64,000 nucleotides of DNA from Bacteroidota bacterium (GTDB taxonomy: Bacteria; Bacteroidota; Bacteroidia; Bacteroidales; GCA-2711565), in NCBI GenBank assembly GCA_018816945.1, contig JAHIVC010000069.1, positions 37,339 through 101,338 of the forward strand, read 5' to 3'. This document shows, piece after piece, positions 3,485-64,000 of this stretch. Under the pieces are notes generated by a model, which saw only the letters and a program-made list of their open reading frames with translations, had not been told where the DNA came from and did not search any database. The stretch's first letter is position 1, and every line of letters begins with the position of its first letter. A program made the translations under genes and the position numbers.

Positions 3485-3823
3485 GGCTTGAGAGTGTGTG
3501 TTATATTTACTTATTGGTTTTTAATCAATTAATTTTTTTCTACTCGATCAATTTATCATTTTTATTCGTTTTATTGAATATTCTTTCTTGGCTTAAATCA
3601 GGATAGTCATTATTCTCAAATAAAAAGGAATGTTGTTTGCGTTGATTAATAGTAAAAAATTCAATCGTTACTTTTCTTAAAATTTATACCATTATCTTTA
3701 ATTTGTCACATCTCTGAACGATTCATTTGATCAGAATGTTCATTATCCAATTGTAAAAAAACGCCCCAGTATGAAGCAGTTTTGTCAAGAAGAATTTTAG
3801 ATTTAATAATAAAGTTTTAATTT

Positions 3824-6800
3824 CTATTGTTTAATTATTTTCGATGTAATAATTTTCCCTTCTGTCTCAAATTTTAATATGTAAAATCCAGCAGGCAATG
3901 AAGATAAATCAACTTCTTTCTCATTGTAGATGTCTTTTACGAGTTCACCTATACTCGAAAATATTCTTAATCTGAAATATTTTTCAGCATAAATATAAAT
4001 TCGGTCGGATGCAGGATTAGGATAAAAGGTGAAAAGTTTATCTGAAGGTTCATCAATAGCGGTAGTTGTGGATACAACAATATATGCAGTTTTTGTAATA
4101 CTATTATTACCTGCATTGTTTGTACTGGTTAATTTAACCTGATAGGTTCCCGGTGAATTATAAACTACAGAAGGATTTTGTAAACTCGAGGTAGCAGGCG
4201 ATCCACCTGTAAATATCCAACTCCAACCGGTAGGATTATTGATTGATAAATCATAAAATTTAACCGTAAGGGGAGCTGAACCTGTTTTTATATCGGCAGT
4301 AAAATTTGCGACGGGTTCAAGTTTTAAATCTCTTACACCGGTTGCATAAAAAACGGGCCATTTTGCATCTATTGCAATGATACTGGCTGAGCCGCTTCCT
4401 GCTATTTTGCTCGAAGCAAGGTTTATACTTGCAACTACCTGCCTGCTGCTGGTATTCAGTGCCGCAAATGCAATTTTATCGTCATTTTTTGAAAAAGATG
4501 GAAAACCAACCGTTGCATTTGTAGTTATCGTTTCTACATTCCCGGTTAATAAATTTGCCCCCAATATGGCATATTCGTTTGAAAAACCATTTATATAATC
4601 AAATGCGATGATATAGGGTGAGTTTTTTGAAAAAGTAGGATTTCCAATACTTACATCATCGGGTAGCGAACCATAAAGTTTGGTTACTAATCCATTGCCA
4701 AAATCATCAGTTTGATTGTCCCAAACCTTGATAATTCCAATATCCCAGTATGTTATATCTGCCGATAGGGTTGATTTGATGGAGTTGTAAGCATCATAAA
4801 TAACATACTCACCTGTATGATCAAACTCGATGGCATCTGCATACAGAACTCCACCGGCTTTGTCGCCGCTGTTGCTGGTGGTGGGATTATATAACTTGAA
4901 CTTTGCCCAACGTTGTGTGATAAAATCATACACATAAATAGCAGTATCAATTTGGGTTGAAATAGCTGCCAATCTATTACGATCCTTCGATAAAGTTACA
5001 TTGTCCCAAAATGCTTCATTCGAGACAATGTATTCATTGGGTGCATTGGGGTCAGAACTCATGGCCCTGATTTTATGGTCATTCGAAACAAATAAAATTG
5101 TACCGCCATTGTCCGAAACGCAAACTTTACCTTTCATGATTGTGGTTGTGTAAGCCATAAAATTAGTGCCAGTAGTCGAGCTTCTATATAGGGTATTTGC
5201 GTTTAATGTGTCTGTATCGTATGTTAGAAGGTATTCTTGTCCGGGGTTAACCTCATATTCCTGAGCGTAATTTATTTGGCTGTCTTCATAAATTCCAACT
5301 GCATCAAAAGCTTTACCGGCTTCCGTTGCTTCCGAGGAGTTGTTCCCATATAAATCTTTTGCCGATTGCACTACTGCAAGCCGAAAATCAATAAATTTTG
5401 ATTTACTGACCAGATAATTATTCAGGGCCCGGTAAAAAACCTTCTCTGCTTTTGTTTTGCTTACTGCTGTAGCAAAAAGATAATATGCATAATTGCCAAT
5501 TCCGCTGTTAATATGAACACCGGCATTATCCTCCTCACCAACGTACATTTCCGATAAATGTTTGGGTTGCCAGTAATAGTGACTCGAATTACCACCATTA
5601 TGTGGATCGGCCATATTTCTTAATGCACCGGATGGATAATAGGGCGATTTTACGATATCTTCACCAATCAGCCAATCATCACGGTCGACCATTGATCCAA
5701 AAATATCAGCATAGGTTTCATTGATTGCTCCCGGCTGTCCGTAATATTCTAAATTAGCCGTATTTGAAACAACACCATGCCCCATTTCGTGAGCCGTAAC
5801 ATCTAATGCCCCTGCAAGAGGTTTGAAGTATGTACCTCCATTTCCATAAAATACAGCTCGCCCATTCCAAAAAGCATTTTCCATCGAGGTTCCATCATCT
5901 TCAGCAACATTTACAAGTGAGAGAATATCGCCTCCCTGATCATTGATGGAATTGCGGTTAAAAGTATTTTTAAAATATGTGTATGCTTGCTTTGCATTGT
6001 AGTGTGCCGAAACACTGGCACGATTTGTCCATGTATTATTTGTTGATGTAACAAATGAATAGTTTAAATTGGTAGTTGAAGTGTTATTTGCATCTAAAGT
6101 CATGATAATACCCTCTGATTTAGTTGAGTTAAACATAGCTTCGGAGATATTATACAGATAATAGGTTCCGGCTTCGAGATAAGTATTTATCGTACGTAAT
6201 ATTCCGTTCAGATCATAAGCACTTGCGATAGTCGGGCCATCAGAATTTGTATTATTATAGAAATGGATTATTTCTCTGCTGTTTGCATCGACAAAATATT
6301 TCCATTCCTCAATGAAATTGGGGCGATATGAAATTTCGTAAGCCAGTTTACCATCGTAAATAACCAATTCTGATTCCGGTCGATCGTACTTTAATAATTC
6401 TTTTTCTTTTGTTGACAGGTTTTTTAAAATGGTTCGTGCTTTTAGGTCATCACTAACTATATTTATTGCTGTTTGTTTATCGATACCGGGGCTAGATTCA
6501 ATTGCCGGATTCAAAAGTTCAATCCGACCTGTAAATAAATCTTTATCAGCACCTATATGCAAGTATGATTCGGCTCCATACACTTTTACTCCTTTAAAAT
6601 ATTGTTGGGCCTTTACATGGGTTATCCCTAAACTATCAGTCTCCGTTTTGGTAATTATCAATTCATCTTTGGGTTTGAGAAGTTTTGTAGTTGATTTTGT
6701 CGATTCAAAAAACGAATAGAAATGTTCTTCACTTGTTTCAACTTTTGTTGATTTTAAATTACTATTTGTTCTCTCAAAAAAAATGGGGGAACCTCCATCT

Positions 6801-53917: not shown

Positions 53918-54451
53918 TTGGATAAGCATAACATCATATTGATTGCTCATGGACAATTCGAAACCAGCTTTCTGAGAGAAATAGCTGAAGAAGTAGCATT
54001 TGAGTATAATTGTTCCGTAGCTGTTCAAGAGAGTCAACTCGATTTGACGAATTTTTATGATCCTACACGCCGGCAATATGATGGGTATAAGTTACTTAAG
54101 GAAATCGAAGGAATGAATATTGCCGGTTATAATAAAAAGATTGGGTTATTTCGGGTCGATTTGTTTATCCCTATTCTCACCTATATTTTCGGTCAGGCTT
54201 TCTTTAAAGGTAATTCAGGAATTGCTTCACTTTACCGACTCAAAAATGAGCAATACGGAATGAAGACCGATCAGAATTTGCTTTTTTATCGTTTCAGAAA
54301 AGTCATCATTCATGAAATTGGTCATACTTTCGGATTGATTCATTGCCATGTTCCAAACTGTGTCATGCGATCAAGTACCTACGTGGAGGATATTGATCAG
54401 AAGAGGAATCATTTGTGCAATAACTGCAGGGAAGAGATGATGAAACACTGA
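53918..54451 (+). CDS. Archaemetzincin-like (M54) zinc metallopeptidase
   Basis: HEIGHTFGLIHC...CVM...CNNC fits the HEXXHXXGX3CX4CXM...CXXC archaemetzincin signature. Confidence 0.75.
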   Translation: MDKHNIILIAHGQFETSFLREIAEEVAFEYNCSVAVQESQLDLTNFYDPTRRQYDGYKLLKEIEGMNIAGYNKKIGLFRVDLFIPILTYIFGQAFFKGNSGIASLYRLKNEQYGMKTDQNLLFYRFRKVIIHEIGHTFGLIHCHVPNCVMRSSTYVEDIDQKRNHLCNNCREEMMKH

Positions 54452-54660: not shown

Positions 54661-54897
54661 TTATTCTTTGCAGCTCTTATCGCAAATCGGCGGGGTGGAT
54701 GTTTTCTTACACATGCACCACATTACTTCTTGGTTTTTTTCAAAGGTAACGGCACAAGGTTTTTTACTTGTTCCTCTATGTGATCCATCGCAAAATGGTT
54801 GGGTAGAACTATTTCCGCAGGCACACCAGTGATATTCACCGGCCTCCATACTCATTAATTTAGATTGTACATCCTTTTCTTCTGGTTTATTTTTCAT
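54661..54897 (-). CDS. CDGSH-type iron-sulfur domain protein
   Basis: 78 aa with one canonical CACGNSSTQPFCDGSH motif and a second degenerate one, CMCKKTSTPPICDKSC. Confidence 0.8.
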   Translation of the reverse strand: MKNKPEEKDVQSKLMSMEAGEYHWCACGNSSTQPFCDGSHRGTSKKPCAVTFEKNQEVMWCMCKKTSTPPICDKSCKE

Positions 54898-55408: not shown

Positions 55409-55452
55409 GTATCAAAAAAAAGAGCTTCATCATCGTGTTGAAACTCTCAGTG

Positions 55453-55527
55453 TCGGGGTAGTAAGATTCGAACTTACGACCTCCTGCTCCCAAAGCAGGC
55501 GCGCTAACCGGACTACGCTATACCCCG
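55453..55527 (-). tRNA. tRNA-Pro (anticodon TGG)
   Basis: Hand-folded 75-nt cloverleaf. Acceptor CGGGGTA/TACCCCG+A, anticodon arm CCTGC-TTTGGGA-GCAGG, and T arm GTAAG-TTCGAAT-CTTAC. Followed by a hairpin plus T8 terminator. Confidence 0.9.
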
Positions 55528-55826: not shown

Positions 55827-55916
<90 letters not shown>

Positions 55917-56056: not shown

Positions 56057-56575
56057 ATGAATGATTCAAAAAATATTGAGATCAAGGCTCGTTGCATAGA
56101 TTTAGAACGCATCCGAAAAATTCTTCTTGATAAAAAGGCTGAATTTATTGGTGTCGATCATCAAGTTGACACTTATTTTAAGGTTAATTCAGGTAGATTA
56201 AAATTACGGGAAGGTAATATTGAAAATAATTTGATTCATTATCAACGACCAGATCAGCTTGGACCGAAACAAAGTGATTTTACGTTATTTAAAACAGAAA
56301 GTGGTTGTGAATTAAAAAAAATACTCAACAAAGCACTTGGCATTATGGTAATTGTTGATAAAATACGTGAAATTTATTTTATTGATAATGTTAAATTTCA
56401 TCTCGATCAGGTGAAAGATTTAGGTAGTTTTATAGAAATTGAGGTTATTGATAAGCAAGGAGTATTAAATGAAAATGATATGCTAATGACTTGTCAGTTT
56501 TATTTGAAATTGTTTTTAATTAAGAAAAATCAATTGATTGAGAATTCATATAGTGATATGATTTTAAAGATGTAA
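56057..56575 (+). CDS. CYTH-domain protein (class IV adenylate cyclase/CyaB-like)
   Basis: 172 aa with an N-terminal IEIKAR (EXEXK-like) motif and LKLREG. Confidence 0.65.
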   Translation: MNDSKNIEIKARCIDLERIRKILLDKKAEFIGVDHQVDTYFKVNSGRLKLREGNIENNLIHYQRPDQLGPKQSDFTLFKTESGCELKKILNKALGIMVIVDKIREIYFIDNVKFHLDQVKDLGSFIEIEVIDKQGVLNENDMLMTCQFYLKLFLIKKNQLIENSYSDMILKM

Positions 56576-56675: not shown

Positions 56676-58283
56676 TTATTTAATTGTCAGAATGATAGGG
56701 GATAGAGACCTTTCATCATTAAAAGGCCCTACTGCAACAATATTATCAAATAATAAATTTTGCCCTCGGTTTGTAATTTCAATTTGTGCAATCATTTCCT
56801 CAGTTAATAATCCATTGTTAGAAATATATTGATATATATTAAATCCTTTTTGAATTGTTAATTTAAATGATTTTATTTCAAAAGTTAGATCAAAACTAAA
56901 ATCGGACGGCATTTTTGGAACAATGGCACCAGCTGCAAGCAGAATCTCTCGATTTATAAAACCTTCCTTAATATTTGCAATTGTTGCTATTGGATCAGGT
57001 AGCCGTTTAATCCTAAAATTTTGTGAACCCATTTCTTTTTTAATTCCGTTGATGATTGCCGAAATCGTTATTACGGTATACCTTTCATCGGGAGGAACCG
57101 TTACAGTCCATTTATCAGATGAAAGACCGGCAGTTATGGTCCCTTTCGAAATTACCGGATGGAGATTTTCCTTAGAAATCCCTGAAACTGAAATGGAAAC
57201 TGTATTCTCAACACCGATATATAATACATTCATTTCTGCCACTGAGATAGTAACTGAAGGTTCTGCTACTACATATTGATTAGAAAAATGATAATAATTT
57301 GTTTCACCGGATGAAGTTTTTACTCCAATAACCCCGGCATATTTATTTATACCTGTCTTCCGTGCAGGTAGACGGATATCAGATTTTCCATCAATACTAC
57401 TAATCAGTTCTGCTTTGCTTAGTTCACTAATTGGAAGTGAATCCACATCTCTCATTAAATATATTTCAGGGCTCTGGCTTGTGTCATAAGCTGCAACAAT
57501 CACTTCTGCCTTATATTCATCTCCAACAAAAATGTAATTATTATCCGGTAGAACTTTTGCATCAATTTTATCATAGCTAAAATCTTCGGCATTTATTTCA
57601 TCCATTAACTTATTTACAATTTCAAATTCCGCATCATATACTTCGGTAATAATTTTATTTAAAATCGTGATATCTGCAGCCAGTATTGTGTTGTAAAAAT
57701 GATGAGCTTCCCAATTCTGTCTTTGTCCATCAGCATTAAAGTAAGTACTATCAGTAATGAGTCCAAGCTTTAAGTCATTTCTATCTTTGGGATTTATCAG
57801 CTCAATCATTTTTTGACGATGTTCGATAATCTTTTCCTTTAAGTATCTTGATTTTCCTTGTGAACCATCATGGGAATCACCCATAAGATAGGCTGTTGTT
57901 AAACTATAATTATCTTTACTTTTTAAGTTTCTAATTTCAATTGTTTTTGCTGAATCTATTGATATTTTTTCAGTTACTGAAATCAACTCATATCGAAGGT
58001 TACTGATAAATTCAATCATTTTTCCAGAAAGGGATTTTGCTTCCCTGGCTTTATCCCAATAAGGCTTAACCTCATGCTGATTTAACTGGTACATTTTTTC
58101 AAAAGTGCCATAAGTGCTTTGAAGCCTCTGTGAAAATTTCTCGTTTGTTAATACTATACTTTCATTTACAACCAAAAACGCATCAATCACTTCTTTAGAA
58201 ACATTAATTGCTAATAAGGCCGTAAGCACAAGGTACATCATAGCAATCATGCGTTGTCTGGGTGTTTCTTTTGCTCCTGCCAT
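56676..58283 (-). CDS. gldM: GldM/PorM homolog (T9SS/gliding motor periplasmic shaft protein family)
   Basis: 535 aa. The N-terminus MAGAKETPRQRMIAMMYLVLTALLAINVSKEVIDAF closely parallels the canonical GldM N-terminus and TM helix. C-terminal FRIKRLPDPIATI is like GldM FRIKGIPGP. No gldL, gldK or gldN is adjacent. Confidence 0.85.
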   Translation of the reverse strand: MAGAKETPRQRMIAMMYLVLTALLAINVSKEVIDAFLVVNESIVLTNEKFSQRLQSTYGTFEKMYQLNQHEVKPYWDKAREAKSLSGKMIEFISNLRYELISVTEKISIDSAKTIEIRNLKSKDNYSLTTAYLMGDSHDGSQGKSRYLKEKIIEHRQKMIELINPKDRNDLKLGLITDSTYFNADGQRQNWEAHHFYNTILAADITILNKIITEVYDAEFEIVNKLMDEINAEDFSYDKIDAKVLPDNNYIFVGDEYKAEVIVAAYDTSQSPEIYLMRDVDSLPISELSKAELISSIDGKSDIRLPARKTGINKYAGVIGVKTSSGETNYYHFSNQYVVAEPSVTISVAEMNVLYIGVENTVSISVSGISKENLHPVISKGTITAGLSSDKWTVTVPPDERYTVITISAIINGIKKEMGSQNFRIKRLPDPIATIANIKEGFINREILLAAGAIVPKMPSDFSFDLTFEIKSFKLTIQKGFNIYQYISNNGLLTEEMIAQIEITNRGQNLLFDNIVAVGPFNDERSLSPIILTIK

Positions 58284-58288
58284 TTGTG

Positions 58289-58795
58289 TTATTGGGTTAT
58301 TGTATAATCGACATATATGGTGCTAATTCCTGGTTGAATTTTAGCATAATCTGTAATTTTAAAAGAAAATATAAGTTGATGACCTTCATTTCTTCCTGAA
58401 CCTGTATAGCTGGTTCCTATATTATCAATTAACGTCTTAGGAATATGCGATAATTGCACATTCCCGACCGGTTTACCTATTTTTCCATTACTAAATCCTC
58501 GGTATCTTTTTGCTTCTATGTATAACTCCAAACCTTCTGGTACACTTCCTGAAGATATATTTACTGATATAGAGGCAGTAGGATCAGATGCTCCAATCAA
58601 TAAGGTATAATTTAACCATTGAGAATCATCAACAATTATCTGCCCTCGGCTACCTGCATTGTTTATTATCGCTAAATCTAAAAAAATAGGTGTCTTTTTT
58701 GAAATAGACAATTTATTCTGAGCAGACATATAATTTATACTCATGACCATGAATGCGCAAATTATGATTCTTAAATTTCTCATCTTTTTTATCAA
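58289..58795 (-). CDS. Small secreted beta-rich protein, paralog of 63385-63948
   Basis: 168 aa with a signal peptide ending MSAQ. It shares TLIDNIGTSYTGSGRNEGHQL with TLVSNIGSCYSGTAADDGYRM of the 187-aa protein. It lies 5 nt upstream of gldM-like and 24 nt downstream of the 1017-aa gene. Confidence 0.5.
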   Translation of the reverse strand: MIKKMRNLRIIICAFMVMSINYMSAQNKLSISKKTPIFLDLAIINNAGSRGQIIVDDSQWLNYTLLIGASDPTASISVNISSGSVPEGLELYIEAKRYRGFSNGKIGKPVGNVQLSHIPKTLIDNIGTSYTGSGRNEGHQLIFSFKITDYAKIQPGISTIYVDYTITQ

Positions 58796-58819: not shown

Positions 58820-61800
58820 TTAAATTATTTTCTGAAATTTTATTTTACGCACTTCTTTTTTAATAAGTACTTCGACTATTTTTACTTCTCCTGATGAAAG
58901 TTCAACTTTAAGTTCTTTGGTAACCAGCTGATAACCTGAAGGAATACCTTTATCATAGACTTTTAATTGCCAGACTCCAGTTCTGAGATCTTCAAAATTA
59001 AAATACCCAGTTTTATTTGAAAAAACCCTATAAACTTCATTTCCTTTACTGATTTCTATAATAAGGTTTCCTAATTGCTCCTTAACAGGAATATATTCTC
59101 GGCTGTTGATGTTAGAATCTTCCTGAATAATTATTTTACCAGTTATTCTGCTTGATTTTGTGAGTACTATTTCAAAAACTTTAGTCTCTCCCGGCAGGAT
59201 TTCAATCTTATAAGGTCCGGGTGTTTCAGCAATTGTATTTAGACCTGTGATTGCATCGTTCATTAAAAGGTAATATATACCAGTTTTAACAATAGGAAAT
59301 TCAAAGAATCCATTTTTATCTGTGTGAGCAATATTTCCGGACAGGGTGAATATAATTCCTTCAATATTTTCCACCCCTTTGTTAATCACTCGGCCTTTAA
59401 GGCTGCAAATATCTTTCTTTTTCGCAACCGGAACGTTTATGATGTAATTATAGCTTAAAGCAACGCTTAATTCTTTATTATTAAGTGTATTTCTGGTAAG
59501 ATTGTAATTGGCAGAAAGTCCAAACTCATGTTTATTGTTCATTGCTAAACTAATTCTGGAAGAAATTAAACTCCGATCTTTATAATATTCCTCCATCTCA
59601 TAATTATTTTGATATTCAAAAACGATACTGAGTTTTTTCCAGAATATTGCATCAAGTGAAGCACCATAATATATTGATTTTAAATCGCGGGTTTTATAAT
59701 ACTGACCTCCTTGGTAATTCGCAAATACATCGAGTGAAAAGCTATTACTTACTTTGTAATCCATTGACAAATAAGATTTGTACACAGTTGTAAGTTCACC
59801 TTCTTTATATACCAGTAGATTATTAATCTTTCCCATTTCTCCGTAAAAATTGAGTGCAAATCTTTTTATTCTATTTTGAAAAGTAATCCTCCCTGTGTAT
59901 TCTTCATAATTAAAGAGTTTTTGTTCGAATCTGTCTTCTCGTTTTCGCTTGTACACAGCAAATCCTAAACTGTTCACTTTTTTGATCCTAAACATAGCCA
60001 AGAAACTGATATTTGTACTTAAAGGTGCATTTGAATATATCGTATCTAGGGCACTATTGATATGATTAAGCTCGTAACTGGCCGAAATATTTGATTTGGG
60101 AATAATGGACGTGCTAATTCCCGCTGAAAGATATTTTGAATTTGAAAAATATCCTGGAAAATCCTTATCTGCCATGGTATAGTTAAAATAGGTCCTGATT
60201 TTCGACCCACTCAACTTCAAACTTCCTTTATATGCCGAAGATGTTTTATCATTTTCCATGCCATTAGCGTATTCAAAATCTAATAAAGCCCATTTGGTAA
60301 GATTGGTCGTACCTGATACTGTTAAAAGCTCTACAATAGAATTTGTGATAAAAGTTTTATTTAGGTATCCTAAATTAATTTTGAAATTTTTAGTAGGAAA
60401 ATAACTGCTGTAAACAGAATATACCTGGGTGACGTTAGGATAATACTTGGGATAATTCAAAAAAGCTCCAAGCATTAATTTTTTAAAAATGTTCTCAACA
60501 CCTACTCCTTGCCCATGACGTGATGACTCAGTTAGGTCAGTCAATCTGTAATTATGATCACCCACCACTATATTTAAATGATTTGATGAATATTTTGCAA
60601 AGTATTCTCTATTTAATCCGAACACAGGATTTCCTTCCTTATCAGGTAAACGCACACGAAACTCTACCATTCTTTTTTTATTTGGAGAGATCATTCCTTT
60701 TGCGCTTATATCAAACATATAACCAAATCTTTTTTCTCCATTTCTTTCATCTGAAATGGCCAAACTTCTTATACTAATAGGAATACGATCATAAGCATCA
60801 AACTTTTGTGTTATTGACGGAATAACATCGAAAGAAAACGAATTTGTAACTGAAACTTCTGGCTTTCCAACTATAGTTGCTGTCAGGTGCACACTTTTTC
60901 TTGTATAAATAAGAATGTCTTTTTTTGTTGAAAATGGGATCCTCATGTTCGCATAGGAATCAGGTTTGATGGAGAGCATTTTATCCTCGACTGATGTTTC
61001 GGTGGTGACCTTTGTATTAATATCAATTTCTAAGTTTGACAAATTACGAACCCGGAAATGTACAATTAATGAATCTCCTGCGAACACATAATCCTGAGTT
61101 GGCAATGTCTCAATTGCAATCTCATATCTGGGCTTTATTAAAACAGGTATTTTTAATAATTTAACCATTTTGCTATTCATTTTATTGAATACTTCAACCT
61201 TTATAGTATCAGTTCCAACCAACGTCGATTCTTGAATATAAAAACTCAAAACTTTAATTTTCTTGCTATTCTTTCCAACCATCACTGATGAATAATCATT
61301 TAGTAAACTCCAGGCTTCTGGAGCTGTAATTTTCAAATGAAATTCCTTTGCTGTTTTGCTGTTATTCGTGAGCATGATTACTAAATTTATGCTGGAACCA
61401 GGTATTATTTCTTTGACCCCATTTTCGATTAAAGAAGCATCCAATAGCTCCATATCTGTATTATTCTCAGTTTCGATAATTTGATGATCTTTATCAACTA
61501 TTAATATCTTATCACCATTTGGCTCACGTTCGTTTATTGGTTTATTTGAAGTTCTTTTTAACAGATTGTCAGATTCATCATTTATTTCAACCTCTTTATT
61601 AGAAATGAGAGAAGTATTATCAGCAAAATTACCTGGTAGAAAATATTTCTGACCAACAATTAGTTCATCATTGTTTTTGAGAAATGCTTGATTTATCTTT
61701 TTAAATTCTGCCAGATTTTTGTCAGGATTTAAACCATTTCGTCGTAGCAATGCATAAATACCTTCCCCCTTTTCTGCAATAGTTGATTTAAGGTTTTCTT

Positions 61801-61873
61801 GAGCCATTCCAAAAAAACAGAAACCAAATATAAAGAACCATATGAGTGTTAGTTTTCTCATGTTTTTTAGCAA
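58820..61873 (-). CDS. Large outer-membrane protein: LysM-like, two CARDB/NEW3-like Ig domains, putative beta-barrel, two CarboxypepD_reg-like domains
   Basis: 1017 aa with a signal peptide. LysM-like GEGIYALLRRNGLNP...LIVGQKYFLPG. An alternating aromatic/polar beta-strand region spans roughly residues 340-790. C-terminal LKGRVINKG...TDKNGFFEF and ITGKIII...SNKTGYFNFEDL. Confidence 0.55.
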   Translation of the reverse strand: MLKNMRKLTLIWFFIFGFCFFGMAQENLKSTIAEKGEGIYALLRRNGLNPDKNLAEFKKINQAFLKNNDELIVGQKYFLPGNFADNTSLISNKEVEINDESDNLLKRTSNKPINEREPNGDKILIVDKDHQIIETENNTDMELLDASLIENGVKEIIPGSSINLVIMLTNNSKTAKEFHLKITAPEAWSLLNDYSSVMVGKNSKKIKVLSFYIQESTLVGTDTIKVEVFNKMNSKMVKLLKIPVLIKPRYEIAIETLPTQDYVFAGDSLIVHFRVRNLSNLEIDINTKVTTETSVEDKMLSIKPDSYANMRIPFSTKKDILIYTRKSVHLTATIVGKPEVSVTNSFSFDVIPSITQKFDAYDRIPISIRSLAISDERNGEKRFGYMFDISAKGMISPNKKRMVEFRVRLPDKEGNPVFGLNREYFAKYSSNHLNIVVGDHNYRLTDLTESSRHGQGVGVENIFKKLMLGAFLNYPKYYPNVTQVYSVYSSYFPTKNFKINLGYLNKTFITNSIVELLTVSGTTNLTKWALLDFEYANGMENDKTSSAYKGSLKLSGSKIRTYFNYTMADKDFPGYFSNSKYLSAGISTSIIPKSNISASYELNHINSALDTIYSNAPLSTNISFLAMFRIKKVNSLGFAVYKRKREDRFEQKLFNYEEYTGRITFQNRIKRFALNFYGEMGKINNLLVYKEGELTTVYKSYLSMDYKVSNSFSLDVFANYQGGQYYKTRDLKSIYYGASLDAIFWKKLSIVFEYQNNYEMEEYYKDRSLISSRISLAMNNKHEFGLSANYNLTRNTLNNKELSVALSYNYIINVPVAKKKDICSLKGRVINKGVENIEGIIFTLSGNIAHTDKNGFFEFPIVKTGIYYLLMNDAITGLNTIAETPGPYKIEILPGETKVFEIVLTKSSRITGKIIIQEDSNINSREYIPVKEQLGNLIIEISKGNEVYRVFSNKTGYFNFEDLRTGVWQLKVYDKGIPSGYQLVTKELKVELSSGEVKIVEVLIKKEVRKIKFQKII

Positions 61874-62117
61874 GTTATGCGTCAGAAAAATCCAAAAAAG
61901 TCTTGATGTTTCAAGTGATTATTTTCTGGCACTGCTATGCTATAAACCATCTCCAAAAAGCCATATGCAATTGAAAAAGATCAGTACTATACAAAACATA
62001 GCATTTGTTGAAGATTTTCTCATGCCAATCTACTCTAAATTAAAAATACTGGCTGGTTTCTTCTTAAACTATAAAGAGGTTCATTCGGGTTGAATTTATT
62101 TTTATAAATTCTTGACT

Positions 62118-62909
62118 TTAGAAATAAAGGACATAGTCAATACCGAACACATCTTCTTCTTTTCCGTCTGCAATAATTAAACATTGGTATGTTTTTTTAC
62201 TCTCCACACCTTTTAAATTTAAACGGAATCTGACAGAAGTCTTTGGGTATATCCCTTTCTTAGATGAGGTAATAACTTTTACGGATTTACCAGTTTCATC
62301 GAAAAGCTCCATCGAAAGTTCGGGAGCGATATAGTGTTGGCCTGTATTGACTATATCGACTGCTAAATACAAATTGTCGCCTTCTGTAATTAGTGTTGGG
62401 TTTAAAAAAGTTAATGCACCCATTCCTTTATTTTCTATTTCGGTAACCATTTGTATCGCGTAACGCGTTACAGTATTTATGTTCAGTTCTCCTTTTTGTT
62501 CAGGATCAATCGGGTTCACCCCTTCAATCATTATTATGCTCCAAAAAGTTCCGCTCAATGTATCGGTTTTTGGAATAACAATTTCGTATTGAATGAAACG
62601 ATTTTCTTTCCCCTTTACAATTAAAGTTTTAGGACTGTAATTAATCCACGATGCGTTTGATCTTTCATGCGTAACAGGTTCATCATAAAAAGTGTAATCT
62701 TCATAATTATAGAGTAAATCTGTCTGATAGATTCTCACTTCCTGATCCATTTCTTCACTATTGTGTAATTTGATTTCTCCTCTAATAGTATCTCCCCCTA
62801 TACCACTATGTAGATGTTTTAGGCTACCTAAAACCTCTATTGATGCCAATGATAATAAAGGCAGCATGCCAATAAAAATCAATGCAAGACAATATTTTAT
62901 TTTTTTCAT
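62118..62909 (-). CDS. Secreted two-domain Ig-like protein (chaperone-like / DUF916-DUF3324-like)
   Basis: 263 aa with a signal peptide. Two beta-sandwich-like halves (GEIKLHNSEEMDQEVRIYQ...; LYLAVDIVNTGQHYIAPELSMELFDETGK). The family assignment is from memory only. Confidence 0.4.
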   Translation of the reverse strand: MKKIKYCLALIFIGMLPLLSLASIEVLGSLKHLHSGIGGDTIRGEIKLHNSEEMDQEVRIYQTDLLYNYEDYTFYDEPVTHERSNASWINYSPKTLIVKGKENRFIQYEIVIPKTDTLSGTFWSIIMIEGVNPIDPEQKGELNINTVTRYAIQMVTEIENKGMGALTFLNPTLITEGDNLYLAVDIVNTGQHYIAPELSMELFDETGKSVKVITSSKKGIYPKTSVRFRLNLKGVESKKTYQCLIIADGKEEDVFGIDYVLYF

Positions 62910-63245
62910 AATTTTAAATTTTATTTTTTAATTATCATATGCCTGCCTATCGGCAGACAGAAAATGCCCTATAATCATCTCTGTTGTATAAATTTATTTT
63001 ATGGGCATTTCATCTATTTCTTTATTAAATTGAATTATTAATTCCTTCCGGTGTAATGGTTTGCATAAGATAACTCTTCCATTTATTAAATTTTAGCATC
63101 TGTTTAAATGATTAAAATGAGGTAATTCACGCTTTGAAAATTCAACAGTTTTGATTTTAAAGAAGAATTACTTCAATACAGGATCAGAACCTGAATAACT
63201 TAAATAGAGGATTTGTAAAATGAAAGATCACTTTCGATGCGAATA

Positions 63246-63273
63246 AAATGCGGCAGATAAATCCGCCGCATTT
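63246..63273 (-). terminator. Probable intrinsic terminator/attenuator downstream of the 187-aa gene
   Basis: Minus-strand hairpin AAATGCGGCGGA-TTTA-TCTGCCGCATTT with one mismatch, followed by TATT. It lies about 112 nt after the stop at 63385. Confidence 0.5.
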
Positions 63274-63384
63274 CAACCATTCTTCGGCAAAACTTTAATA
63301 ACATTAGTTTAAAGGTCATGCACGAAGGTTTATTTCACACACGGAAATAAATCTTAAAAAATAACACGCTCTAAAGAGCTTGTT

Positions 63385-63948
63385 TTACAATGCCGCTGTA
63401 AGTGTTAAGGTTACGATAAGGCTGGCTGACGCAGTAGCACGGATGTCTGCATAATTTGCTGATGGATTATCAAGGCCCCATGTGTATTTCATTCTGTATC
63501 CATCATCAGCTGCTGTTCCCGAATAACAACTTCCGATATTGCTAACTAGTGTTGCATCGCTGGTTGTTAATGTCACATCTGTTGCGACAGGTGTTCCAAC
63601 GGTACCTACTGCATTGGCATTAGGATTTAAAACTCTTGCTGTCAGAGTTGTTCCTCCAGGTAAGGTTCCGGTAAACTTGGCGCTAAGGGTGCGTGGTGCT
63701 GCATCAGAAATTACAGATGAAAATTGCACATACGCACTTGAATCAGAAATACTACTTTGAACGGCCTCCCCAGCAACAGTTGCTGCACTCAGGGTTAAAT
63801 TTACACCTCCGCTTGTTGTGGCAAGCAAAGCTACCTCCGGCAATCCCATTGTAATATTGTGAGAGGTTACATTATCTTGGGTGTGTGCTTTTGTAACAGA
63901 TAAAAAACATCCCCCAATAATTCCAATTACAATAATTAATTTTTTCAT
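63385..63948 (-). CDS. Small secreted Ala/Thr/Gly-rich beta protein (candidate fibre/pilin-like subunit)
   Basis: 187 aa with a signal peptide. The composition resembles surface-fibre subunits and is noticeably more GC-rich than the surroundings. Paralogous to 58289-58795. Confidence 0.5.
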   Translation of the reverse strand: MKKLIIVIGIIGGCFLSVTKAHTQDNVTSHNITMGLPEVALLATTSGGVNLTLSAATVAGEAVQSSISDSSAYVQFSSVISDAAPRTLSAKFTGTLPGGTTLTARVLNPNANAVGTVGTPVATDVTLTTSDATLVSNIGSCYSGTAADDGYRMKYTWGLDNPSANYADIRATASASLIVTLTLTAAL

Positions 63949-64000
63949 TTTCGTGTGTTTTATGGTTTATTAATTTTTAATTTGAATACATTCTGTTTTT

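Follow-up and report, generated by a model that had tools for sequence, protein, structure and literature searches.

A conserved, uncharacterised gene cluster of Bacteroidota as a candidate chaperone-usher-like surface-fibre assembly system

Near one end of a 64,000-nucleotide stretch of a Bacteroidota bacterium genome (contig JAHIVC010000069.1, positions 37,339 to 101,338; this whole stretch is hereafter called the window), two small secreted proteins of 187 and 168 amino acid (aa) residues are encoded on either side of two larger genes. Are they the major and minor subunits of a polymer or surface layer, as a preliminary description had proposed, with the abundant subunit encoded first and a partial terminator behind it? 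We found that both belong to a set of four paralogous subunits, S1 to S4, in a locus with the order histidine kinase-response regulator, S1-S2-S3 (187 aa), hairpin, C (263 aa), U (1017 aa), S4 (168 aa) and GldM paralog (535 aa). With modest confidence, we favour the reading that the locus is a new chaperone-usher-like surface-fibre assembly system, conserved as an uncharacterised gene cluster. Neither Pfam nor NCBIfam nor the PDB has a sequence family that S, C or U reaches (querying the PDB with the three, by sequence and by profile, gave only noise such as antibodies and cohesins), and, judged by sequence, these parts of the locus are not members of the chaperone-usher, WxL, type V pilus or type IX families.

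Four paralogous subunits in a constant gene order

The open reading frames (ORFs) of the two proteins were confirmed on the minus strand at 63948-63385 (187 aa) and 58795-58289 (168 aa), and by inspection both products carry the signal peptides reported previously, which are of typical Sec type: in each, a basic n-region precedes a hydrophobic core and an AXA-like site (between TKA and HTQ in the 187-aa protein and between MSA and QNK in the 168-aa protein). The two proteins are paralogs far beyond chance: BLASTP aligned them with an E-value of 8e-10 (26% identity over 121 aa), a profile from orthologs of the 187-aa protein alone matched the 168-aa protein with an E-value of 4.8e-19, and a profile-profile comparison of the two ortholog classes gave a probability of 99.95% (E-value 5.7e-38, 166 columns). 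The claim of two paralogous subunits was thus correct as to paralogy, but the pair is part of the larger set. The locus is cut by the window end, and two Logan contigs (L001 and L002), whose sequence equals that of the window throughout the aligned overlap (window 62900-64000), carry the upstream part, where two further S paralogs of 190 and 191 aa lie just past the window end and a two-component system, consisting of a REC-PAS-HisKA_3 kinase and a REC-GerE regulator, lies ahead of S1. Because these two S genes stand upstream on identical contigs, the 187-aa gene is not the first subunit gene, as had been supposed, but the third and the last of the three upstream. S1 to S4 share the motif (G/N)IGSCY(S/T)G...G(Y/H).L.Y and a C-terminal strand, (V/I)T.T(L/I)T.

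For the comparative analysis, one representative genome per GTDB species was scanned, 80 of the 221 stretches encoding a relative of C were kept (each from a different contig), and 82 non-redundant loci were annotated with our own profiles. A two-component system, a feature absent from the preliminary description, was found upstream in 46 loci. The order S(n)-C-U-S was constant across all 82, and each position was found to be an ortholog class of its own by the best match outside the own locus: this match came from the same position for 59 of 60 subunits of the post-U class (the gene right after U, such as S4), 64 of 71 of the pre1 class (to which S3 belongs), 49 of 55 of pre2 and 27 of 44 of pre3. 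The order matches that of chaperone-usher operons (subunits, chaperone, usher, terminal subunit), in which csuE, fimH and papG stand last.

The profile-profile alignment also showed that the post-U class lacks about 15 residues straight after the signal peptide. The deleted segment is 'nt..h.ltlgIPEVaLl', which contains the conserved 'ltlgIPEVaLl' of the other classes. In lacking this segment S4 is like the tip adhesins of chaperone-usher pili, which lack a donor strand; unlike the last subunit of those systems, S4 has one domain and no separate lectin domain.

Other features of the subunits were observed beside these. The mature subunits of the three pre-C classes each have one Cys, nearly invariant, within the loop motif (G/N)IGSCY(S/T)G (Cys141 of the 187-aa protein, window 63526-63528; also L001 4302-5631), and at this site the post-U class has Ser or Thr, the Cys being replaced in S4 too. 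A lone conserved Cys is unusual in an exported protein and could be an inter-subunit or cofactor site. A lipoprotein signal was ruled out, the signal-peptide Cys not being conserved across the family, and so was an N-terminal His brace: the mature 187-aa protein begins with His, but this residue is not conserved, and the published work on signal strapping has no bearing on this family.

The 187-aa gene is Ala/Thr/Gly-rich and locally GC-rich, as described before (Ala, Gly, Thr and Ser make up 47% of its residues; GC content 0.43-0.45 versus about 0.32 in the neighbours). The excess lies in the first and second codon positions (GC at the second, 0.54), and GC at the third position (0.27) equals that of the neighbours, so that the excess reflects amino acid composition; horizontal transfer and codon bias were ruled out on the same ground.

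Hosts of the 80 kept loci are mostly metagenome-assembled genomes (MAGs) labelled Bacteroidales, Bacteroidia or unclassified Bacteroidota, together with Prolixibacteraceae (Draconibacterium, Tangfeifania and Mariniphaga), Paludibacter, Lentimicrobiaceae and Saprospiraceae, and some Desulfobacterota, Syntrophales and Zixibacteria MAGs are also carriers. The cultured carriers, Draconibacterium sediminis and Tangfeifania diversioriginum, both have a locus without the motor gene. Two MAGs labelled Gammaproteobacteria also have the locus, namely L013 (Ca. Marithrix) and L069 (Ca. Thiodiazotropha); the L013 contig is probably a mis-binned Bacteroidota fragment, because its C is 63% identical to that of the window and a GldM paralog is present. 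Homologs of S3 form 87 clusters at 90% identity, all from metagenomes, MAGs or one single-cell genome, and the few clusters with a source name are labelled Bacteroidota or Bacteroidetes. The S superfamily as a whole comprises 1,320 clusters at 50% identity (E-value at most 1e-3), and the best 150 of these all measure 127-245 aa, mostly about 180-200 aa.

The spacer and hairpin between the S3 and C genes

The gap between S3 and C (62910-63384) is exactly 475 nt long, as had been stated, holds no ORF longer than 39 aa, and gave only chance-level matches and no family in Rfam. The stem-loop noticed earlier at 63246-63273 is contained in a hairpin at 63275-63244 with a 14-bp stem and a 4-nt loop, which begins about 110 nt past the S3 stop codon and has a UUUUAUU tract that starts inside the 3' arm and extends past it. 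Its centroid energy is -20.5 kcal/mol (z = -3.7), none of 200 shuffled sequences folded as well, and the intergenic regions of the locus contain no second strong hairpin that has a U tract. A standard terminator scan missed it, because by the stem-and-tail rule of that scan the U run falls within the stem; custom scanning and folding recovered it. The entire spacer also folds better than its shuffles (z = -5.4). Two further hairpins lie in it: a short one, GCUC/GAGC with U6, immediately behind the stop codon, and one of sequence CUGCC-GAUA-GGCAG some 40 nt ahead of the point where the 263-aa gene starts. The spacer sequence is not conserved outside close relatives. No intergenic region of the locus contains an exact copy of TAnnTTTG, the Bacteroidetes -7 promoter motif.

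Among the relatives, the S-to-C gap ranges mostly from 11 to about 480 nt (median 158) and reaches about 1.2 kb in three distant loci. The long gap is thus common but optional, since it measures just 11-25 nt in about ten loci. When hairpins with a U tract and an energy of -11 kcal/mol or better were counted, one was present at the junction of the pre1 subunit with C in 32 of 71 loci, compared with 17 of 126 S-to-S junctions and none at all at C-to-U (0/82), U-to-S (0/60) or S-to-GldM (0/40). The absence downstream of C, together with the enrichment before it, lends comparative support to the earlier idea of a partial terminator that sets stoichiometry. The GC-rich stems at the S-to-C junctions of different loci are non-homologous, which argues for selection on function and not for shared descent. 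Downstream genes follow one another at operon-like distances (median gaps: C-to-U 28 nt, U-to-S 16 nt, S-to-GldM 14 nt). A hairpin between subunit and assembly genes is likewise a point of agreement with chaperone-usher operons, and the E. coli record annotates a small RNA, FimR2, directly after fimA.

Folds and domains of the encoded proteins

The AlphaFold2 (AF2) model of S3 is all-beta (predicted local distance difference test score, pLDDT, 86), with residues 22-38, the mature N-terminus, as coil in the monomer. Foldseek comparison with the PDB placed chaperone-usher pilins at 13 of ranks 1-14, the exception being FimD at rank 6; the matches, to CfaB (in an entry of a CfaB-chaperone complex), FimG, PapA and CS17/CS20, are weak (E-values 3e-3 to 0.1; template modelling (TM) scores 0.3-0.47). 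The structural check suggested in the preliminary description therefore returned pilins as the best matches, at a low level of similarity. By sequence, no S class had a match in Pfam (a scan of 42 S proteins) or NCBIfam, and hhalign against FimA of E. coli MG1655 gave a probability below 1%. In addition, a secreted family of about 169 aa follows the post-U subunit in 23 loci, and a Thr/Ala-rich family of about 166 aa lies upstream of C in Desulfobacterota loci; neither of these two small secreted families has a match in Pfam or NCBIfam. Such small secreted neighbour families in distant loci (L083 14403-14912, L005 6715-7254, L069 3019-3519 and L042 13516-14007) may be very divergent subunits.

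C is modelled as two all-beta (beta-sandwich) domains (pLDDT 88), in agreement with the chaperone fold, in which two immunoglobulin (Ig)-like domains form a boomerang. Its best Foldseek matches in the PDB are two entries of WxLIP from E. faecium, 9i1y_B (E-value 4.6e-11) and 9i25_C, one of them bound to a WxL protein, and both align over both domains (TM-scores 0.56-0.58). Next come CfaA, FimC, CsuC, Caf1M, YadV, DraB, SafB and EcpB (E-values 3e-10 to 2e-7), and the top 50 PDB matches (E-values 5e-11 to about 1e-7, probability 1.0) include essentially every solved pilus chaperone. By sequence, PapD_N and PapD_C had no Pfam match in C of the window at an E-value of 1 or below, nor among 47 family members, hhalign against E. 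coli FimC gave a probability of 0.2%, and a PDB profile search with C was empty. Sub-threshold Pfam matches to WxLIP_PGBD occur in 22 of the 47 members (best E-value 4.6e-4), and a distant ortholog has a weak WxLIP_HBD match. The sequence of C ends in a beta-strand and has no C-terminal membrane helix. The family is highly conserved, with 225 clusters, of which the 120 listed are all at least 57% identical. One locus (L031) has a second C-like gene of 293 aa at 3820-4701, some 4 kb upstream of the main cluster and on the strand opposite to it.

U begins with a signal peptide, after which come, in this order, a LysM-like segment, two Ig-like domains, a barrel-like region of about 400 aa and two transthyretin/CarboxypepD_reg-like domains. 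Pfam gave SpaA and CarboxypepD_reg matches at residues 826-870 and 934-998, and among family members the N-terminus had NPCBM_assoc, FixG_C and weak WxLIP_PGBD matches, the middle DUF2490 and DUF7840 matches, and four members a clear LysM. Inspection and a noisy hydrophobic-alternation heuristic point to an amphipathic beta pattern at residues about 384-815; a strand count from the heuristic was dropped as too noisy. U can thus be read as a barrel of the outer membrane that bears Ig-like domains N-terminally and two transthyretin-like domains C-terminally, and the arrangement of putatively periplasmic beta-sandwich domains on both sides of a barrel-like middle is like that of an usher. An usher has a 24-strand barrel with a plug, an N-terminal domain and two C-terminal domains; U differs in its LysM, NPCBM_assoc/FixG_C-like Ig and transthyretin-like C-terminal domains, in having no recognisable plug and in a barrel region of only about 400 aa. 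It had no Pfam Usher match, and hhalign against FimD gave a probability of 0.5%. Some details of the gene were also observed: the LysM-like N-terminal segment of about 120 aa is an extra of the window lineage (window 61500-61873), the C-to-U gap in the window is 244 nt (61874-62117) against the median of 28 nt in relatives, and an ORF of 83 aa at 61842-62093, read from the opposite strand, is probably spurious. The predicted start of U differs by gene caller (995, 1013 or 1017 aa), and only the longer forms keep the signal peptide.

The 535-aa protein downstream of S4, which the preliminary description had not mentioned, scored 295 bits with the equivalog model TIGR03517 (cutoff 180), has all four GldM Pfam domains and aligned over its full length to the PorM structure 7cmg (E-value 1.8e-46; 162 bits to PorM of P. 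gingivalis). Read from the sequence, it retains both R9 and Y17, which have been shown to be important for the function of the motor (10.1101/2020.05.11.089193). In the near clade (C at least about 52% identical), a GldM gene lies directly downstream of S4 in 39 of 43 loci, with a gap of about 5-35 nt, and a GldL paralog with its GldL_N domain kept follows it, in the order M then L, in 13 of 40 (for example, L003 14594-17017 and L039 3249-6369). The window itself has no gldL homolog anywhere in its 64 kb, and the distant clade has no GldM (0/20). In L039 and L048 a post-type subunit and GldM (with GldL in L039) form a separate divergent unit, and L036 and L038 have two GldM genes in tandem.

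The coordinates of the features are summarized in Table 1. Downstream of the locus, the window encodes seemingly unrelated neighbours: a CYTH-domain protein (56057-56575), tRNA-Ser (55827-55916, minus strand), tRNA-Pro (55452-55527, minus strand), a CDGSH iron-sulfur protein (54661-54897, minus strand) and a peptidase M54 (archaemetzincin-like) protein (53918-54451).

Table 1. Features of the locus within the window, listed in the direction of transcription
Feature	Coordinates	Strand	Basis
S3, 187-aa secreted single-domain beta-sandwich subunit, class pre1	63385..63948	-	ORF, AF2 model
Terminator-like hairpin after S3	63244..63275	-	Folding versus shuffles
475-nt untranslated spacer between S3 and C	62910..63384	-	Length, ORF check
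C, 263-aa secreted protein with two beta-sandwich domains, candidate periplasmic chaperone	62118..62909	-	AF2 model, Foldseek
U, 1017-aa secreted protein, candidate outer-membrane assembly platform	58820..61873	-	Pfam, family matches
S4, 168-aa secreted paralog, class post (gene right after U)	58289..58795	-	ORF, paralogy
GldM/PorM paralog, 535 aa, starting 5 nt past S4	56676..58283	-	TIGR03517, Pfam

A possible fibre-assembly mechanism and its alternatives

Compared with the Csu-type (csuA/B-A-B-C-D-E) and classical (fimAICDFGH) chaperone-usher operons, the locus agrees in having small paralogous subunits, a two-Ig chaperone-like protein, a large, putatively outer-membrane protein and a specialised last subunit. 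The pilus-like reading of the preliminary description is in part supported by the fold of C, the barrel-like sequence of U and the pilins among the best matches of S3, but not by membership of any sequence family. Type V pili (FimA/Mfa1) are another system to be compared, being Bacteroidota fibres whose beta-sandwich subunits are believed to be linked through strand exchange. Their pilins are made as lipoprotein precursors of about 350-550 aa, which a protease matures, and have no chaperone or usher gene; S, in contrast, measures about 165-190 aa, has no conserved signal-peptide Cys and gave no FimA or Mfa Pfam match.

In the mechanism that we propose, the HisKA_3 kinase and the NarL/GerE-type regulator would probably switch the locus on, S1-S2-S3 would probably be co-transcribed, and the hairpin after S3 would end most transcripts, with read-through into the genes behind it, so that subunit message would exceed assembly-gene message. 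Soluble C in the periplasm would capture each S by inserting a beta-strand, in the way that PapD-like chaperones bind pilins and that WxLIP is predicted to bind WxL. U, a predicted outer-membrane barrel flanked by periplasmic Ig-like and transthyretin-like domains, would be the assembly and export platform, possibly with a pore function, at which the subunits may polymerise by donor-strand exchange. The segment missing from S4 is a candidate donor strand, and S4 could therefore accept a strand and not donate one, which would make it the distal tip and the first unit assembled. S3 is the candidate for the bulk subunit, which would be in excess through the terminator, with S1 and S2 as adaptors. 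In the near clade, the dedicated GldM paralog, with GldL in some genomes, keeps the proton-coupling residues and may link the platform in the outer membrane to the proton gradient across the inner one.

Several points weigh against a chaperone-usher-like fibre system. The pilin fold match of S3 is weak (E-value 3e-3, TM-scores 0.3-0.47), and no component reaches the chaperone-usher sequence families (no PapD_N/C, Usher, Fimbrial or SCPU match in Pfam, none in NCBIfam, and hhalign probabilities below 1% against FimA, FimC and FimD). About ten loci are without the long gap and hairpin. The link to a motor is unexplained: the chaperone-usher pathway needs no energy source, GldM is absent from the distant clade, we know of no chaperone-usher system linked to GldM or GldL, and our literature search found no description of a GldM paralog linked to a chaperone-usher-like cluster. 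Finally, the best structural match of C is WxLIP, whose partners, to our knowledge, are not known to polymerise.

The last point makes a non-polymerising, Gram-negative counterpart of WxL clusters, a resemblance absent from the preliminary description, the main rival, WxLIP being the single best match of C, and we regard it as improbable but deserving of serious attention. C would then bind a single S by strand insertion, the subunits would be displayed as monomers or small complexes with the four S classes as alternative modules, and U would be an outer-membrane anchor or exporter. In addition to the two E. faecium entries, one of them WxL-bound, at the top of the C matches, the sub-threshold WxLIP_PGBD and WxLIP_HBD matches in C and the weak WxLIP_PGBD match at the U N-terminus fit this explanation. 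So does the encoding of a two-Ig protein beside several small paralogous secreted beta-rich proteins, since WxL clusters (PMC10599100, PMC9772566) pair one WxLIP (DUF916 and DUF3324) with two or more small paralogous secreted proteins (PMC10599100), and a WxLIP strand inserted into WxL has been predicted with AF2. However, the combination that defines WxLIP (DUF916 PGBD, DUF3324 HBD and a C-terminal membrane-anchoring helix) was not found in C, which has no such helix and remains below the Pfam thresholds, and none of the 42 S proteins had a Pfam WxL match at an E-value of 1 or below. WxL proteins have two Trp-x-Leu motifs; here a single W-G-L motif occurs, in the pre1 class only, and the 168-aa paralog has F-K-I at that place. 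The pre1 motif, Y...YTWGL, recalls what we take to be the distal WxL motif. Pilins, and not the 9i25 WxL chain, are found in the top 50 structural matches of S, the host is a diderm with an added, putative outer-membrane barrel protein, and the LPXTG protein and the large multidomain WxL protein of WxL clusters are absent from the locus. An ordered polymer, more than a display of alternative modules, is also what one would expect from the strict positional orthology, from a post-U class truncated at its N-terminus and from a terminator behind pre1. A literature search on WxL and donor strands gave nothing relevant.

We consider it distinctly unlikely that the cluster serves a GldLM-driven envelope machine as an accessory module (the machine being a type IX secretion or gliding variant, or else a motor device of a new kind) and is not a pilus, with S, C and U as a periplasmic or outer-membrane track, stator partner or cargo of the GldM paralog. 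The tight linkage of GldM and GldL in the near clade, the retained motor residues and the separate unit of post-type subunit with GldM (and GldL) in two loci speak for such a module, and passing the GldM threshold is a point that the 535-aa protein shares with the GldLM (PorLM) motor of type IX systems and gliding. On the other hand, distant-clade and Desulfobacterota loci keep S-C-U-S with no GldM, from which it follows that the core works without it, and the folds of C and S point to a chaperone and a pilin. Further differences from type IX systems are the order M then L, which reverses that of gldKLMN, the match of only 162 bits to P. gingivalis PorM, and the absence of annotated gldK or gldN from the loci with Pfam-labelled gene calls, the other loci not having been searched for these genes. 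No type IX C-terminal sorting domain was found on the 187-aa and 168-aa subunits (NCBIfam) or on the 42 S proteins (Pfam). Conservation also disfavours a further alternative, which appears very improbable: that unrelated small secreted proteins happen to lie beside an outer-membrane protein, the hairpin being an ordinary operon-end terminator and the downstream genes a separate unit. The hairpin does resemble a full intrinsic terminator, and the 475-nt gap could hold a separate promoter, but order and positional orthology are kept in 82 loci of two phyla, the S-to-C gap shrinks to 11-25 nt in about ten of them, and a fourth paralog lies inside the supposed downstream unit.

Beyond the chaperone-usher-like fibre system that we favour stands a bolder version, which we hold to be doubtful: an unrecognised fibre pathway, mainly of environmental Bacteroidota but present in Desulfobacterota MAGs too, that is a diderm relative of WxL clusters and whose outer-membrane platform is driven by its own GldLM-type proton motor in one large clade. 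If true, it would join WxLIP and PapD-like chaperones in one evolutionary lineage, would be an energised pilus of chaperone-usher-like type, which might rotate, retract or be secreted, and would be the first case of a GldLM motor that serves anything other than type IX secretion or gliding.

The surface structures of Bacteroidota are ascribed to type V pili and type IX secretion, and chaperone-usher pili pass for a well-catalogued group. The locus would add an assembly route with a chaperone-like fold and pilin-like subunits that escapes every sequence model, and the GldM linkage raises the question of whether GldLM has jobs beyond type IX secretion and gliding. The cultured Draconibacterium sediminis and Tangfeifania diversioriginum would give experimental access to it. 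It would also be the first diderm counterpart of the poorly understood Gram-positive WxL clusters, suggesting that strand-complementing chaperones may be older and more widespread than thought.

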